This document shows, piece after piece, positions 2,201 to 62,979 of a stretch of 64,000 nucleotides of DNA. The DNA comes from Squalus acanthias (taxonomy: Eukaryota): NCBI GenBank assembly GCA_030390025.1, contig CM059432.1, positions 22,384,001 through 22,448,000 on the forward strand, in the 5' to 3' direction. The notes under the pieces are model-generated. The model ran no database searches. It saw only the letters and a list, made by a program, of their open reading frames with translations, and was not told where the DNA came from. The translations under genes were made by a program, and so were the position numbers. The stretch's first letter is position 1. Every line of letters starts with the position of its first letter.

Positions 2201-2641
2201 GGGGGGGGGGAGGCCTCATGGTGGGGATCGGAGGCCTCGGAAGACGATCGGAGGCCTTGTGGTGGGGCCTCCCATCGCGGGCTGTGCGTTAGGCAGGGAC
2301 CCTGGATCCAGGAGGTCGGTATAAAGCCACGTACCTCCTGGATGCAGCAGTCCCCTGCCTCAGTTTAACTGCCGGGTTTCACGAATTGTGTGAAACCTGT
2401 CCCCAGGCAGTTAAATTCAAAATGATGGGGAAAATAGAGGCTTACAGCCTCATTATAATATTTCAATTAAGGAAACGTCCCCTGGGAGTGGATTGATCAC
2501 CCTCGCGCCCCCCCCCCCCACCCCCCGTTCCACCTCCCTTAAAACCGGAAGTGGGTGGGTTGGAGGCGGAATCCCATTTTTAACAGTTTAGCTGCCCCCA
2601 CGCTCCAAACCCAATCTTTTTTTTCGGGGAAAATTCCGGCC
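2201..2641. mobile_element. Right arm of a Harbinger-type MITE (left arm at 1-22 and upstream of window), interrupted by the LTR
   Basis: Ends in TIR AAAATTCCGGCC (2641) followed by ATT; sequence resembles other MITE ends at 50560-50806 and 57072-57300. Confidence 0.7.
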
Positions 2642-2712
2642 ATTAATTCTACTTCTCTCTCCACAGATGCTGCTTGACCTGCTGAGTATTTCCAGCATTT
2701 TCTGTTTTTATT
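2642..2712 (+). mobile_element. Penelope-like terminal fragment (portion 3' of the hammerhead cleavage site)
   Basis: ATTAATTCTACTTCTCTCTCCACAGATGCTGCTTGACCTGCTGAGTATTTCCAGCATTTTCTG matches the reverse complement of 9080-9143. Confidence 0.75.
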
Positions 2713-4086: not shown

Positions 4087-4927
4087 TGAAATGCTGCAAC
4101 AATGAACTGCAAGTTCTCAATAATGTCAGTTGCTCATAATTCTTAGCTTGGGAAAATGCCACGACAACCAAGTGGCAGAAGTATGTTCACAATAAGTGCT
4201 CTCAACAAAGCGATTAAAAATTGCTGGGGAGGGTACACTGGTGCTTAATGGAGAAACAGGTTCCAATGTGGCAGGAGGCCTCCATAATTAATAATAACAC
4301 TAGAGTTAGTGAACCAACATGTTAAACTACTGCAAAAATGCAGACTAAATCTCATCTTTACAGCTGTTGGAAAATACTCTTACTGCAAAAAATTGTAGTT
4401 GTTTCCCTTGCTTTGATCTTTTAAAATCCAAGTTTGTCATCACTGAACTATGAATTCTTGTTTTCCCTCATCTTCACTCCTATTCTTTTCAGTATTAGTG
4501 ATGCTCTGCAGTATGGGCTGGGCCATTCACCTTGATTTCTTAATTTTGAAAGAAACCAATAGACCTCACAATGTCTGCATGTTGGATACTCTTCAAATAG
4601 GAACAATGACCTAGAAATTGGATAAGGCCCAAAAAAGGGCATGGGTTTTGCGATGCGTGACTACCCCGCACCCGTTCCTTCCGAGCAGGCAACACAGAAA
4701 CTTTGTGCTGCTTGCTAATTTAAATGTCAGCAGTGTGCAGCCCAGCGCTAACCGTGCTTTTGAGTGGCTGCACGCCTCAGTAGGGAGCTCAAGTTTGTGC
4801 GAGGCTAGCACCAATTAAAGCTAGCCTGCAGTTCTTAAAGCCAGCCTGCACCTCTTAAAGGAGTGGCGCATTCTGGCTGCAGCACGTACTGGAAGTTGTT
4901 GTCGAGGAGTGTGAAGGAAGATGGAAG

Positions 4928-6808
4928 ATGGCACAAAATGGCAAAGAGAGGGCTCCCAGATTTTCTGATGCAGCATTCGAAGACCTGGAGCAGGAGGTTC
5001 TCAGGAATGGAGGTGTCCTCGATCTACAGGGGGCCAGGAGGCCCTCCAGACACAAGCTGAGAAGGGAATGAGAGCAGATACCCATCGCTGTCAATGCAAG
5101 CAGTGTAGCCCCGAGGACCTGGAAGCAGTGCAGGAAGAAATTCAAGGTCAGTGAATTCATCTTCAAATGCCATATCCCAGCATCTGCACCATTAGCCTCA
5201 CACACTGCTCAAATCAACACACCCCCATCAGAATCATACCAACAATCTCTATCAAAACAATTCAGACCTCACATTTATAGTTTTGCCTCACCCTCACACA
5301 CTTACCACTGCTGCAAGCCTCACAGCTTGCATACACTGCCAGCTATTCAACCATGACAGGCACATCAACCAACCACACTCAGTGAAACGCTTCCCTTTCT
5401 CTTCCAGGACATAACTGGAGGCAGCAGGGGCTACCCGCAGGGAGACAGGTGCACCTGCATGACCTAACCACCATGGAGGAGACGGTGCTGGAGATAATTG
5501 GAACGGCCATCGCTGAGCCTGTGACCAGCAGAGGGGCTGAAACAATCTAAGTTGACGGTATCCTCATTCCTAATCCTCTTTTTCACATTCCACTTTCCCC
5601 TCATTCCACAATTTCTTCTGATTTACAAGCTGCAGATGGTGTTAGCACCCCCCCCCACCTCACCACAACTGTACCCTTGTGCCTTTCTCCTTTCAGATAG
5701 CCAAGAACTGCAACCTGGCCAGGCAGTGGTGAAGAGCAGGAACATCAAGAGGAAGAAGGCAGTGAAGCTGAAGACACAGCAACGTCTCTCGATTTCACAC
5801 TCGCAGCTACCAGCTCAGATACAGACACTCTGTGTACTTTAGAGGATAGGTTAGGAGTGGGACCTGCACGTGGTGAGACACCGAGCATGAGTGGTCTGCA
5901 GCCAAGGCAGGGGGAAAGGTTAGCTCAGGTGCCAGCTCCCTGGAGGGCGAGGTTGCACACGGGTTCTGCTACACAGGACTCAGATGAGGACTTCGATGGG
6001 GCAGCCTACAGAAGAAGGCTGATGGGTAGGCATACAGAAATGCTTGGTGCATTGGCAGACCTGCCAGAAAGCCTGAGTGCAATGTCAAGGAGCATGGAGG
6101 AGTCTGGCACCAACCTGGCACAGGGCTTTGTGCAGAACTTGGAGCTCATCCTTTCCAGCATGGAAGGGGTGGCCAGATCCATTAGCACACTTGTGGGCCC
6201 AACCATGATGCAGCGTCTGATGGCTGATGTCTCAGCCTCCATATGAGCACCAGCAGAAGTCACCCAACGTCTGAGTGCTGCAGTGGAAGCTCAGACTGAA
6301 GTCATGCAAGCTCAGCTTGTTGCCATGCAAGCTCAGTTTGCTAACACAGACTGGTGCCATCATGGCTGCGGGTACCAGTGTTGAAAGGGGTTTTTCAGGG
6401 TATCACAGCAGTCCAGCCATCTGTCCTCCAACAGATTATTAGGAATGCTGAGGCACCGCCCCGGGGAGTGGCAGTGGCTCCGTGGTGCACGAACTTGTTG
6501 TCCTCTCTCAGGATGACAGCACTCGTCCTCCCACCGTTGTCACTCTGCCAGTGCCCTTGCTGTTGCCTGTCAGCAGGTCAGCCCAGACTGTTGCCACCCA
6601 TGCTGAGGTGGTGCAGTCTAAAGCCGGGACTTCTAGGCCCAGAGCTGTTCGAGGTCATCCTACAAGGCCATCTGCAGTCTCTCCCATTGAAAGTCAGCAG
6701 CATTCCACCAGCCATGCTGCAGTCACTTGGGTAGCACTTTGTAGGAGCACTAGAACAGGCAAAGGCACACGGAAGACAGGCACTAATGAAATGCACAAGG
6801 GTGATTAG
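4928..6808 (+). pseudogene. Harbinger Myb/SANT-like DNA-binding protein, 3 exons, disrupted
   Basis: MAQNGKERAPRFSDAAFEDLEQEV...RTWKQCRKKF; inferred exons 4928-5146, 5408-5557, 5697-6808 with GT/AG sites; stops and frameshifts; C-terminus similar to Myb of 59146 element (VVLSQDDS...AGTSRPR). Confidence 0.8.
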
Positions 6809-6976
6809 TTGATATTGTTATGTAATATTGGATGGATTGAATATAAATTTGGTTTGGAATGTTTGTTTTGTGGTGGCTTTTATTGTAGCATTGTGGCCAA
6901 AAGGACGCTGTCATGGTCCATAACAGAGAGAAGGTGAGGTGTGGGACTGTGGGTGAATGGGGAATTGGGGTTGCAT

Positions 6977-8126
6977 TCACTGGTACCGCAGTCGGATCAG
7001 TTGATTATGGGTAGCCCAGCCAGAAAGGGGCTGTGTTGGTTGCCTCCCCACTTCCTCCTGCTCCTCCTCTTCCTCTTCCTTCTCTTCCTCTTCCTCCACC
7101 TCCTCTTCCTCCTCCACCTCCTCCTCTCCCTCCTCCTCAGTTCTTAGCCATCTCGATGGTGGCAAAGGCTGTGCCCTCATGATGGCGAGGTTGTGGAGCA
7201 TGCAGCAGACCATGACAAATCTTGAGACGGGGTCTGGTGAGTACTGCAGGGCTCCTCCAGAGTGGTCCAGGTAGCAGTAGCATTGTTTAAGGACCCCAAT
7301 AGTCTGCTCAATCAAATTCCATGTGGCAGCATGGCTTTCGTTATATGTGGTTGGTTTGCGCAGCGGAGTCATGAGCCTGGTGGTAAGTGGATAGCCCTTG
7401 TCACCCAGTAGCCACCCTCTGGTTTGTAGTGGTGGCTGAAAAGCAGATTGTACAGCAGACTGCCGCAGAATGAAGGCATCATGGCTGCTGCCAGGATACC
7501 GATCATTGACCTGCATGATGCTCTGAGTAGGTCGCACACCAGCTGGATGTTGAGGGAGTGGAATCCCTTCCGGTTGCGCTACATCTCCGAATTCACATGC
7601 GGCGTCCACAAAGCAACATGTGTGCAGTCAATGGCACCCTGCACCATGAAGAAGCCTGCTATCCTGCCGATGTGCATGCTCGCTCCGCCTGCTTCTCTCT
7701 GGTAAGAGAAAATGAAATGTATTCACCTCTCTTTGCATACAGAGCCTCACTGACCTCCTTTATGCAACGGTGGATGGCGAACTGTGAGATGTTGCAAATG
7801 TTGCCTGCTCCAGCCTGGAAGGAGCCCGACGCATGAAAATTCATGGCCACGGTAACATTCACAGCCACTGGCAATGCCGTCCTCGCACTACTCTGAGGCT
7901 GCAAGTCTGCCTGCAACAGGTGGCAGATTTCAGTAAGCAACTCCTCAATGTAGCGTAGACGTCGCATGCACTGTTCCTCGCTGAGATTGCGGTAGGATAT
8001 GGCCTCCTGCTGAGAGCCCTTCTCCCCCTCCTCCCTCTTCAAGCAGCTTGTCCTCCTCTGTGTAGCCTCTGCTCATTCTCCCTATCATGCCGAAAGCCAA
8101 AGGGGGATACAAACTACAGCCCCCAT
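6977..8126 (-). pseudogene. Harbinger DDE transposase (HARBI1-like), frameshifted
   Basis: Motifs [55 protein letters not shown] and acidic tail across ORFs 7659-8042 and 6977-7609; ATG at 8126. Confidence 0.9.
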
Positions 8127-9136
8127 GTCTGGGAGCAATTGGTCTGAGCAGAAGCCTTCAAATACCTGCCACACCCCTCCCTTGAGACTTCAGCAACTTC
8201 AAATAAGACACCAAGCCAAGAAACACCTCTACAAACTCACCAAGATCCAATAGAAATCAATCAGCAACTAACCTGAAAGCAGTTGATGATCCCTTTAAAT
8301 AGCGTTGATGAGGGGTCCTTCCTGCTGCTGAATGAATGTTGAGCTATGGGAGGTTAAGAGAAGGCAGTGGCTGCAGCATTGATGTAAATGGCACCGCTGG
8401 CGTCAAATTAGCATTACACACTGACTGACATCACAATCTATGCACTCTGCATAGTTCCAGTGCACGCTCCAAGCACCCGCACTAGTGAGCTCACCAAAAT
8501 GGCAACCGCACCAGAAGGGTGCACACGCAGCGCGGATGCCATTTTGGGCACACAGCGGCACACACAACGCCGAAAAACCGGATGCTATTGAGCCAAATTT
8601 CGCAGCCGATGGATTTTATCTTAGTCTGCCGCTTTCACAAAACATTACAGCACTACTAAAGTCTGAGTAAAAAGTTCAGAAATTGATGGTTCTTTTGGAT
8701 CACATTGTAATATTTTGATAGCAGTCCAGATTTACTTGTTTGGTGCTGAAGAATACCTGCTTTCAATCTGGAAGCAACATCGACGTGCAACTGCGAGTTG
8801 TTTTGATGCATTATCTGGAACTAACGTAGATCATTTTGAGGATGCATTTCATTATATAACTGAAACAAAGGGGGCAATTTTAACTGTATGTGCCCGGTGG
8901 AAATCGAGCATGAGGTTGGCGATCTGCCCCCCCCACCCCCAACGCACCCCCCCCCCCCCCCCCCCCAGACCCGACCTGCCAACTAGCTCAGCATTGGAGC
9001 TGACAGATTTTTCACCCTCCCAGAACCAGGATACCACAGCAGGGCAAAAGCAAAATACTGCAGATGCTGGAAATTCAAAGCAGAAAATGCTGGAAATACT
9101 CAGCAGGTCAGGCAGCATCTGTCAAGAGAGAAACAG

Positions 9137-10072
9137 AGTTAATGGCCGGAATTTTCACTGTCCGATGCACTGGTAGCGGGAGAGCCCTGCAGTACGCGGG
9201 GATCTCGGAAGTTTCAGCGGAGCATTTGTCCATGGCTTTTTAACAAAGCCACTGCATTAGCATCTGACCTCCGGATTTCCCGACCAATTAGTGTGACCGG
9301 GAGTGACGATGACAGGTATGAGTCTATTTCAGCTGAATTATTTAAAGGGACCCTGCGAAGATGAAAGTTGAAGGATTGTCCAGGTGGGGGAACAGAGGAA
9401 GAAACTGCACTAATGGAGTCTCAAAGTGGCAAGGCTGCGCCTCGCTTAAATGATGCCTCCCTAGAGCTGACGTTGCATTCTGTAAGGGCCCGCAGGGAGA
9501 TTCTCCTCCCAAGCCGACTCCAGCACATCATCCCTCACACATACTTACCTTGCAGGTGCACCTCCACATAACCTCCAAAGTATTGGAAATCAGCTGACAA
9601 GTGAAAGCACACTCTCGGAACAAGTCCTGTGAGCAAAAGCCTTTCGTTTAGGCAAGGAAGCAGGTGTGAGGTCTGAGTACTTATAGGATTGTTTGCCTGT
9701 CACTTGGTCAGCCCTCTCAACTTGCGCTGTCATCTCGCCTTGCTTTCACTGGCGAGACCCAGGAAGCCTGGGAAACCTTCGCACTCAGAGTTAAAGCTCA
9801 AATCTACAGATAAAACAGCTCCTAACTGCCTCTTAACCTCTCCTAATTGTCTCTTAACATCTTTTAGTAACCAACCCGCCTCTCCCATGGGGTTTCTCAC
9901 ACGCAGCCGAAGGCGCTGCAGTTAAAAGCGGAAGTCAGTGGGTTTGAGACCACTTCCCGACCCGCTTCTCCGTTTCATCCCCTTAAACCCCCCCCGCGCA
10001 CTCCCAGACACACTCGGTTTTTAGGTAAAAATTCCCCCCAATGTTTCAGGTCGATGACCTTTCATCAGAACT
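9137..10072 (-). ncRNA. Minimal type I hammerhead ribozyme of Penelope, split by a MITE insertion
   Basis: Minus strand: AGTT-CTGATGA (10068-10062)-A-AGGTC ATC GACCT stem II-GAAAC (10047-10043)-ATT-[MITE]-AACT (9140-9137); stem I AGUU/AACU. Confidence 0.75.
9144..10039. mobile_element. Harbinger non-autonomous element retaining the Myb start
   Basis: Termini GGCCGGAATTTT / AAAATTCCCCCC; AAT TSD (9141-9143, 10040-10042); MESQSGKAAPRLNDASLE from 9413. Confidence 0.85.
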
Positions 10073-11215: not shown

Positions 11216-12520
11216 AAAAAATGGGAGCAGTGGTTATGATACGAAATTGTTGAATTCAGTTTTGAGTCCAGAAGGATGTAAAGTGCCTAATTAAAAGATG
11301 AGATGCTGTTCCTCGAGTTTCCATTGAGATTCAGTAGAATAGTGTAGGAGGCCAAGGACAGAGAGGTCAGAGTGGCAGTGGGGCGCAGCATTAATATGAG
11401 AGGAAGCTCAGGGTCACTCTTGTCGACTGAATGGAAGTGTTCTGTAAAGCATTCACCCAATCTGCATTTGGTCTTCCCAATGTAGAGGTGAGCACGTCGT
11501 GAGCAGTGAATACATTATACTAAACTGAAAAACGAACAAGTAAATCGTTGATTCACCTGGAAGGAGTGTCTGGGCGGTGAGAAGGGAGAAGGTAAAAGGG
11601 CAGGTGTTGCACCTGCTGCGTTGCACGGGAAAGTGCCGTGGGAAGGGGAGGGAGTGTTGGGGATGATTGAAGAGTGAACCAGGGTGTCGCGGAGGGAACG
11701 GTCCCTTCAGAATGCTGAAAGGGGAGGGGATGGGAAGATGTTTTTGGTGGTGGGATCACGCTGGATGTGGCGGAAATGGCAGAGGATGATCTGTTGAATG
11801 TGGAGGCTGGTGGGGTGGAAGGGGAGGACAAGGGGAACCAAATCCACTTGGTTCTGGGAAGGAGGAGCAGGAGTGAGTACAGAAGTGCGGGAAATGGGAC
11901 AAATACGGTTGAGGGTTATGTCAACTGTGGTGGAGGGCAATCCTCGGTTGAGGAAACTGGACAAGGGAGAAAAAATAGAGTTCAGATAGAAAGAAATCAG
12001 TTCCGTGGGCCACGAACAGGCTGAAATGATGGGTTTACTGGGGCTGTTTGTAGATCTTGGGAAGGAGATAGAAGCGGTCTGTGCAAGGTTGGGGACTATG
12101 AGGTTGGAGGCTGTAGAGGGAAGATCTCCAGCGGGATACCTGTCTGACATTCATAGCTTGCCGATGGCATTTCAATGCGGCACAAACGATTTTGGTTTGA
12201 ATCTCCTGCTGCCGCCTTTGGGCCCTGGCTAACCTCACGCCTATTTCATAGTGGAAGTCGAAGAATGCCCCTACTATTTCCATTGGTTGTTGAGGTGGTA
12301 ACTAAAAGGGCATAAATGTAAAATCTTCACCAAAAGAAAAGATGAAGAGAAAGATTTTTTGCATAAAGGGTTGTTAGAACATGCCATGCCCTACCAGAAG
12401 CAATTGTGGAAGCAGAATTCATCATTGCTTTTAAAGGGGAAGTGGATAAATGTTTGAAAACAAAATAAAACAGACTGGAAAAAGGGAAGAAAATGGGATG
12501 AGGTGGTAGACTGGTGCTTC

Positions 12521-61102: not shown

Positions 61103-62979
61103 CTACTTTTTGCCCTTCGAGGGTGATCTCCTTCCCTTGCGCACTTCCCCCCTTCTAACCCTACTGCTCCTCCGTAATGGGACCTCAGTGGCTGCAGCAA
61201 GGCTGGTGGAAGGCTGCTGCTCGTCAGACCCTGACACTGCAGATGCCCCTGAAGGACGGCCTCGACCAGTTCTGGGCCTGGAGGGCCCAGCTGCAGACTA
61301 CACCAACTCTGCATGGGCGGCAGCAGTCTGTCCTACAGGCGGTGGCAAGTGCAGTGGAGAAGTGACAGTGTTGGCAGCAGGAATGCTGTCATCGTGAGAG
61401 AGGACAGCAACTCCCTGCTCGCCCGACACACTGGCACTCCCACGGGGCAGCACTTCAGCATCCGGAGCAATCTGCCGGAGAACAGATTGCTGGCCTGCTG
61501 CGGCGCGGTGACAGCCCCGGGGACATGTGCACGAACCATCGAGGTTGGCAGCAGTCTGTGCTCGCGTGGCCTCAATCTGAGTCTGTATGAGAGCAGTCAG
61601 AGATGGGATCACAGCAGCCAGTGACTGAATTGCAGCACTAAGCGTTAGTGTGGCATCCGCCTGTGCTACAGCGAAGTGCTCCACACTCCTTGCCAGTGAC
61701 TCAATGCATTCGGGCACCCTTCCCACTGCACCCATGAGCTCAGTGTGCATGCCCACCGCCTGGGTGTTCATTTCTGCGATCAGCCGCTCCTCCTCTGCGT
61801 CCATTGCAGTAGGAGTGTCTGGCATACTCTCCCTCTGGAGAGAAGGCCCCCGTTCTTCCCTACCCCCCCCATGGCGTTGCTGCAGCCCGCTGGGTCCTGG
61901 AGCTTCACCCTCATCAGATCCTTCCCCCCTGCTCCCCTCCAGGGAAGGCGTGTTCCCAGTGTGGGCATGGGCTTCCTCGGGAGAGGGTGGCACTGATGCT
62001 CCGGCTTCCTCTTCCTCCTCAGCTGCAGCATCACTCCCAGTGGCAGCTTCAGGGCCCGTCTCCTCAGCTGGTGAATCACCATCTGAAAGCAGGGAGGTAC
62101 AAGAGTGGCTTTAGCGTGAGGACAGGGTGGCAGTAAGGGAGGAATAAGTGCAGCGAGTTAGCAAGTTGGATTGAAAGTGTCAAAGGCTGGTGTTGTGAGG
62201 GACAAGTGGAAGGACAGAGGACAAAAAGGTGATGACCTTACCATTGCTGTCCAGAACGGGGTCGGCGTCTCCAGTGGCGACGGGACCGATCACCCGGCTT
62301 GCCACAATCCTGTGGACGCGCTCCTCAAGATCGCTGAGGGGTTGCAGCTGAGGCCGCCCTCCACCTGTCCGTTGCTGCTGTCTCCGATTATGCGCCAGCT
62401 TGGCCTGCAAGAAAAAGGACAGCATCTGAGTAAATATACAGCCATGGTCTTGCCTGATGTGCCTCCCATAGGTGAATAGCCCTTACTGAATGCAGCCATG
62501 GTCTTGCCTGATGTGCCTCCCATAGGTGAATAGCCCTTACTGTATACAGCCATGGTGTTGCCTGATGTGCCTCCCATAGGTGAATAGCCCTTACTGTATG
62601 CAAAGTGTGGAATGTGTGTGTGTGTTTGATGAAAGGGCCATAGGTGTTGGATGAGTGTTGTGCATTGGGGTTTTAACACCCTCTGGCCATAGAGTGAGGT
62701 TGAGATGGAGGGATGGAGAGGTATTGAGAAAAAGCCACTCACCCTGACGACCCGAGTGAGGTCGTTGAACTTTTTGCGGCATTGAGTATGGGTCCTGGGC
62801 ACCATGCTCCTGGAGGAGACGCTCTGAGCCACCTCCCTCCACACTCTTCTGAACTCGCGTGGCAAAGGCCTCCTGCCACTCTCAGGGAAGAGCATACATC
62901 TTCTGCGCTCCACCGCGCCAACCAGAGCATCCAAGGCCTGCTCGGTGAAGCGATGAGCGCGTTCTCTCACCCTCTCCAT
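61103..62979 (-). pseudogene. Harbinger Myb/SANT-like protein, 3 exons, one late premature stop
   Basis: Exons 62979-62743 (MERVRERAHRFTEQAL...WREVAQSV...QCRKKFNDL), 62404-62242, 62082-61103; canonical GT/AG, phases 0 and 1 join in frame; TAG at 61300-61298 precedes a basic tail ending SKGKK*. Confidence 0.9.
62437..62598. repeat. Tandem repeat, 3 x 54 bp, in Myb intron 1
   Basis: GCCATGGTCTTGCCTGATGTGCCTCCCATAGGTGAATAGCCCTTACTG recurs at 62441, 62495, 62549. Confidence 0.95.

Follow-up and report, generated by a model that had tools for sequence, protein, structure and literature searches.

The window (64,000 nucleotides, positions 22384001–22448000 of the contig, in a 3.7-Gb genome) contains two copies of a Penelope repeat whose minimal-hammerhead-like motif is occupied by a Harbinger-type element. 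Both junctions read as the preliminary description gave them: each element is flanked by a 3-bp ATT duplication, which coincides with the predicted cleavage triplet. Case 1 lies on the plus strand at the start of the window and comprises the following features:

1–2641, beginning at −513 upstream of the window: outer non-autonomous Harbinger-type element with perfect 13-bp TIRs, the MITE proper being −513 to ~22 plus ~2201–2641
23–2200: nested insert bounded by TG...CA and flanked by G runs, recognised from the sequence and as a gap in the alignment to the element at locus L022
69–1384: second Harbinger-type MITE, 1,316 bp, inside the TG...CA insert, with an AAA duplication
2630–2641, plus strand: right TIR end
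2642–2644, plus strand: ATT target duplication, at what is predicted to be the NUH triplet of the hammerhead (numbering follows from the architecture)
2645–2712, plus strand: 3′ half of the Penelope repeat, comprising the 3′ arm of helix I and the tail beyond it

The right TIR of case 1 thus runs through ATT directly into the Penelope 3′ half. The left junction is found upstream of the window start, at window position −513 (L031:9487), directly after GAAAC-ATT, so that the 3-bp duplication is complete, with ATT on both sides. The outer element measures 3,155 bp in total, made up of a MITE of ~980 bp and 2.2 kb of nested inserts. In the alignment, its two MITE halves share 69% and 80% identity with the element at L022, which occupies the same hammerhead base elsewhere in the genome. 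The TG...CA insert resembles a solo LTR and is itself interrupted by the 1,316-bp MITE, giving the locus four levels of nesting. The preliminary description expected CTGATGA upstream of the outer MITE, and held that the lack of a hammerhead 5′ half there would count against its reading. Only ~20 nt of the 5′ half precede case 1, abutting a piece of Penelope ORF that runs in the opposite orientation, and CTGAYGA is absent from the 300 nt upstream of the left junction; because the box is missing, this expectation failed and the locus speaks in part against that reading. The arrangement would fit a Penelope inversion junction. The target in case 1 was probably a motif already truncated; with the CTGATGA box absent, the insertion is unlikely to have disrupted a whole ribozyme.

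Case 2 lies whole within the window on the minus strand, in the order 5′ half (10072–10043), ATT, element, ATT, 3′ half. It is listed here with its neighbours:

9075–9140, minus strand: 3′ half of the Penelope repeat (far end approximate)
9141–9143, minus strand: right duplication ATT
9144–10039: non-autonomous Harbinger-type element, 896 bp, with imperfect TIRs
10040–10072, minus strand: hammerhead 5′ half, with helix I 5′ arm, CUGAUGA box, extra A, 5-bp helix II, GAAAC and left ATT
11237–11961, minus strand: broken end of a Penelope ORF, covering the GIY-YIG region and lying upstream of the case 2 repeat; tblastn matches it (E 6e-62 and 6e-23) to a genomic ORF that itself hits GIY-YIG (E 2e-4)
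6980–7627, minus strand: neighbouring broken Harbinger transposase (DDE_Tnp_4; E 1.4e-20; 45% identity to an intact 390-aa transposase), given as context and as a candidate only

Read along the minus strand, the CTGATGA box at 10068 is followed by GAAAC at 10047–10043 and ATT at 10042–10040; at the other end, the TIR closes at 9155–9144 and ATT follows at 9143–9141. The interiors of the two MITEs had been described as unrelated beyond ~13 bp, which was borne out: by blastn, the case 1 and case 2 elements share the 13-bp TIR and one 27-bp patch only. Elsewhere in the window, a broken two-gene Harbinger-like element with TIR-like ends is seen at ~4600–8610, with its transposase remnant at 6980–8072 on the minus strand; no Pfam match to a Myb domain was found in two candidate fragments. 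A 54-nt unit is present in three tandem copies, 93–97% identical, at 62435–62602.

The architecture of the host motif was derived from 30 empty copies and consists of a 4-bp helix I, CUGAYGA, one extra A, a 5-bp helix II and GAAAC-GUU. A fixed-register test (core, helix I with at least 3 pairs, helix II with at least 4 pairs) was passed by 16 of the 30. The 10.1–11.1 pair is A-U or G-U, and the motif is classed as a variant resembling minimal hammerhead ribozymes (min-HHRs) because the conserved G10.1-C11.1 pair is lacking. The usual empty triplet is GTT (90 GTT and 10 ATT in a hand count of the first 100 empty sites listed). Under the standard hammerhead numbering, the duplicated triplet corresponds to positions 16.2-16.1-17, which would put the left junction at the predicted scissile bond. 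The placement at the cleavage triplet is thus upheld, as a predicted NUH triplet. An Rfam scan of the window returned no hammerhead family at E ≤ 1; it gave five matches, all unrelated and either weak or of hairpin type. Next to an empty copy, an ORF matches GIY-YIG (E 2e-4) at 22.1 bits, just under the cut-off of 22.6, and ORF pieces homologous to it adjoin both window cases; in those two pieces Pfam found no GIY-YIG domain, and the Penelope ORF piece had no match among solved structures. Inversion junctions of Penelope copies often fall in or just before the hammerhead core (L075, L083, L084, L307), producing near-perfect palindromes of two hammerhead halves.

The motif shares several features with the Penelope min-HHRs described in the main text of Cervera and de la Pena (2014, PMC4209133): a type I core, an extra base between positions 9 and 10.1, a 4-bp helix I, palindromic positions 15–16 without loop 3, close pairs on opposite strands, and mostly truncated copies. 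It differs from them at 10.1–11.1, where their conserved G-C is replaced by A-U or G-U, and in having a helix II of 5 bp. That main text contains no mention of shark, and it attributes only low in vitro self-cleavage activity to min-HHR motifs.

The hotspot was measured genome-wide from the CUGA-box anchor of the motif, which occurs 70,560 times; the exact empty 16-mer occurs 74,188 times. Any TIR located 0–30 nt past the anchor gave 575 forward matches, with the reverse strand counting the same events again. Among the first 100 of the 1,498 matches listed, counted by hand with minus-strand double counts removed, 70 of 75 distinct events were at the hotspot base, four at +6 to +8 and one at −3. 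Junctions of one exact TIR in the same 31-base window, all 85 of which were counted by hand, were likewise sharply placed, with 74 at the hotspot base, nine at +6 and two elsewhere (one-base indels were scored as on-site in both counts). The preliminary description had suggested looking for a peak at this base along Penelope, and these 74 junctions show one. Uniform insertion, calculated from 10,426 background-corrected ends, predicts 0.1 exact-TIR junctions at this base in the genome, so that the enrichment is ~750-fold (747). About 1.5% of anchor-bearing hammerhead copies are filled, by many subfamilies, while at least 98% carry no pattern-matching TIR in the 31 bases scanned. Conversely, exact-TIR ends at the hammerhead site of anchor-bearing copies make up ~1.4% of all such ends.

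A hotspot could be mimicked if one or a few composite Penelope–MITE elements had been copied by retrotransposition or segmental duplication. One pair of loci (L112 and L114) is indeed 99% identical, and a few further pairs of exact-TIR junctions look duplicated. Apart from that pair, however, the best identity within clusters is 75–93%, and the 51 ends retrieved by hammerhead-junction searches fall into 26 clusters (two with non-Penelope flanks and one at +6). Several TIR types are represented, and the same families are found at unrelated sites: 26 of 30 hammerhead-junction ends have relatives among 87 unselected ends. At L307 (C1:196211922-196212008), both hammerheads of a single head-to-head Penelope pair are filled at the same base by elements with different left ends. 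A transposase-coding element also reaches this base at L326. Composite copying is largely refuted by this cluster diversity, the several TIR types, L307 and L326, and we consider it extremely improbable. The insertions at the hammerhead site are independent events, as proposed earlier from the two window cases, and the unrelated interiors and the number of clusters support this.

A DDE transposase and a Myb-like partner excise a Harbinger element and integrate it with a 3-nt stagger. The elements studied here have Harbinger-type TIRs of 12–13 bp starting with GG, and the genome contains many intact DDE_Tnp_4 frames of 385–391 aa with related, non-identical TIRs and a similar flank motif. In a young transposase-coding family (L308–L337) with open frames of 385–391 aa, the duplication is near-strict A-N-T: of 30 ends, 28 have A at position 1 and 29 have T at position 3. 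One of these 30 transposase loci (L326) has an end at the hammerhead base. There, the left junction alone is seen at that base; at a distance of 4.5 kb, a TIR with AAT adjoins another TIR, and no tie of the far end to a Penelope 3′ half was found within 7.5 kb. A transposase-coding parent of the MITEs was sought by sequence, and no link from the MITE interiors was found; 21 of the 58 matches sit at the edges of transposase loci, where they seem to represent adjacent MITE DNA. Several transposase-coding Harbingers are seemingly located inside MITEs (L308, L319).

The general target of these elements was derived from ends selected blind to their flanks, namely the first 100 listed for each of two TIR types on contig C1; together, the two types have ~83,000 exact ends in the assembly. 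After four identical flanks were collapsed, 100 and 88 distinct flanks remained. These 188 ends define a palindromic target of ~17 bp, in which an A/T-rich 3-bp duplication is flanked by the half-site G-W-S-T-Y-T-G (G at +1 in 130/188, T at +4 in 158/188 and C or T at +5 in 153/188). Two-ended elements had an identical 3-bp duplication in 24 of 30 cases and a 4-bp duplication in none of the 30. The hammerhead site fits this half-site at five of seven positions in its left arm and at six of seven in its right arm. G is nearly absent (5/188) as the first duplicated base beside the terminal C of the TIR, a shortage that points to CpG decay at the junction; at Harbinger junctions, ATT may often have arisen from GTT by such decay.

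A first matrix, trained after four ends with Penelope flanks had been dropped, ranked the hotspot base top among 145 positions along the repeat. A strict matrix, trained on 78 of 90 ends (12 dropped), gave predictions that were written down before counting: 6–63 junctions at the hammerhead (median 16–20) and 8–94 at a control site in a LINE. The LINE count of 48 fell inside its interval, whereas the 74 observed at the hammerhead exceeded the 97.5% bound and left a residual of 3–4-fold. A refined model was then fitted, after the hammerhead count was known, on 149 of the 188 ends, with Penelope and test-LINE flanks removed, one end retained per recurrent cluster and a real-DNA background (the training ends were drawn solely from the initial 40 Mb of a single chromosome, with 170 kb of background). 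It predicts 405-fold enrichment at the hammerhead (5–95%: 226–754) against the 747 observed, with a share of 0.84 at the hotspot base against 74/85 (0.87) and 70/75. For the LINE site, 6,047-fold was predicted and 5,706-fold observed. The model misplaces the secondary site, putting 11–13% at +8 and 1–3% at +6, where the exact-TIR count has none at +8 and 9/85 at +6. Its fit means that sequence accounts for all but about two-fold of the hammerhead enrichment, the residual being ~1.8-fold and the observed value lying at the top of the 5–95% range.

The control site lies in the coding sequence of a CR1/L2-like LINE (esterase-type ORF1 and RT), between the endonuclease and RT regions; it contains no ribozyme and fits the target half-sites at seven of seven and six of seven positions. 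Counted on one strand each, 557 of 3,035 anchor-bearing LINE copies are filled (18%) against 575 of 35,027 hammerhead copies (1.6%), the ages of the two repeats being unmatched. With exact TIRs, the counts are 48/5,992 and 74/70,560, a 7.6-fold difference (Fisher p 5e-22), again with copy ages unmatched. Per copy, the LINE site is thus occupied 8–11 times more than the hammerhead, although any young Penelope copies counted in the denominator would mask a rate that is in truth higher.

Recurrence at a single base is not peculiar to the hammerhead. Among the 188 unselected ends, 47 belong to 13 clusters with recurrent flanks (the largest of 11), and one falls on the hammerhead triplet. For these Harbinger elements, repeated insertion at the same base of a repeat is therefore routine. 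The 11 ends at the largest recurrent site (L153, L155, L229, L234, L236, L243, L247, L260, L277, L293 and L298) have one common flank that by eye resembles LINE RT coding sequence. Harbinger ends were also observed inside an 8-letter tandem repeat at five loci (L253, L257, L264, L292 and L312).

Ribozyme-directed targeting would require the hammerhead to attract the transposase or an intermediate, either a Penelope RNA or an R-loop, with insertion at the scissile bond silencing Penelope. The exact coincidence of the duplication with the predicted NUH triplet would be expected from this, as would the ~750-fold enrichment and the residual left by both the strict and the refined models. Yet the ribozyme-free LINE site is struck more often per copy, case 1 was struck despite having no CUGA box upstream, sequence alone places the hammerhead base first, only ~1.5% of copies are filled, and a 3-bp duplication is the mark of transposition at the DNA level. 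We regard such targeting as highly unlikely. The earlier proposal that the hotspot specifically destroys Penelope ribozymes is likewise unsupported: the site fits the general target motif of unselected insertions, the ribozyme-free LINE site is the more heavily occupied, and the great majority of hammerhead copies are unfilled.

The explanation that we consider very probable is that independent Harbinger-type insertions at the hammerhead base follow from a good match to the general palindromic target of ~17 bp, multiplied by ~70,000 copies, without any seeking of the ribozyme. The conserved GAAAC of the core would serve as the reverse complement of the half-site GTTTC, and the helix I 3′ arm would supply the other half-site, so that the duplicated 3 bp would fall on the cleavage triplet by coincidence of sequence. 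The genome's DDE_Tnp_4 elements are the putative mobilisers, and loss of ribozyme function, in copies that are mostly truncated, would be a by-product.

This explanation may be refined, rather than opposed, by a modest additional effect unrelated to RNA catalysis, to which we give an even chance. Candidates are non-additive half-sites, CpG in the target, local DNA shape and regional co-occurrence of the two repeats. At +6, which the model failed to predict, one perfect GTTTC half-site is likewise present, the additive model puts too much weight on +8, and the prediction rose when a real-DNA, CpG-depleted background was used, all of which favour such an effect. The residual nevertheless lies just at the limit of the bootstrap range and could reflect noise in training.

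Insertion might also remodel the ribozyme. In the four tested copies with an intact helix I 5′ arm (L098, L102, L117 and L121), the commonest TIR is predicted to pair with that arm at −9.0 kcal/mol, compared with −1.8 to −2.5 kcal/mol for the native helix I arms of three empty copies and −2.6 to −7.3 for other TIR types. This pairing depends on two G-U pairs, leaves a G next to the cleavage site unpaired, and is probably due to chance. Given this predicted pairing, the term “destroys” may be too strong even for filled copies. A stronger proposal is that insertion re-engineers the ribozyme, with hundreds of filled copies encoding chimeric hammerheads whose cut would fall exactly on the transposon RNA's first base, and with the residual two-fold reflecting real attraction or retention; we think this very doubtful.

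Target-specific DNA transposons such as Dada insert repeatedly at one base of a multicopy RNA-related sequence and are near-exclusive to that target. The hammerhead insertions are alike in their one-base recurrence in a multicopy RNA-related sequence, but they represent only the ~1.4% of exact-TIR ends given above. Most copies of a target-specific transposon lie in one target, and a single end out of 188 does not place these elements in that class.

Closer parallels are found in the zebrafish elements Harbinger3_DR and Harbinger3N_DR, which, as here, generate a 3-bp duplication within an extended palindromic target (PMC3016246; PMC2836001). As quoted in PMC3016246, the Harbinger3_DR consensus half-sites are G-T-G/C-T-T-T, which match G-W-S-T-Y-T here, whereas the duplicated triplet is CWG rather than the relaxed, A/T-rich one observed in this genome. 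A further difference is that the preference was measured here in genomic repeats, among them a hammerhead motif. Across the superfamily, extended targets are a recognised trait (PMC2836001). The PHIS superfamily (PIF/Harbinger, Pangu and NuwaI; Han et al., 2015, PMC4482050) is likewise described as combining a DDE transposase, short TIRs starting GG or GGG and 3-bp duplications. The NuwaI group is defined there by a CWG duplication, which the A/T-rich duplications here do not show, while the A-N-T duplication of the young transposase-coding family resembles the ANT of Pangu. In the literature searched, which left out most subscription journals and Repbase notes, no report was found of Harbinger insertion into hammerhead motifs.

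The hotspot is real, and it is a new instance of the known Harbinger target preference rather than ribozyme-specific targeting. Any effect that it has on Penelope activity is probably small. Same-base insertions into a functional-looking motif need a control for copy number and target motif before targeting is claimed. The two repeats provide a natural measurement of vertebrate Harbinger target preference, in which a simple sequence model recovers, within a factor of about two, how strong the hotspots are in two unrelated repeats. Since the conserved GAAAC of hammerheads also forms a Harbinger half-site, Harbinger insertions should land on the cleavage triplet in other genomes that contain both hammerheads and Harbingers.
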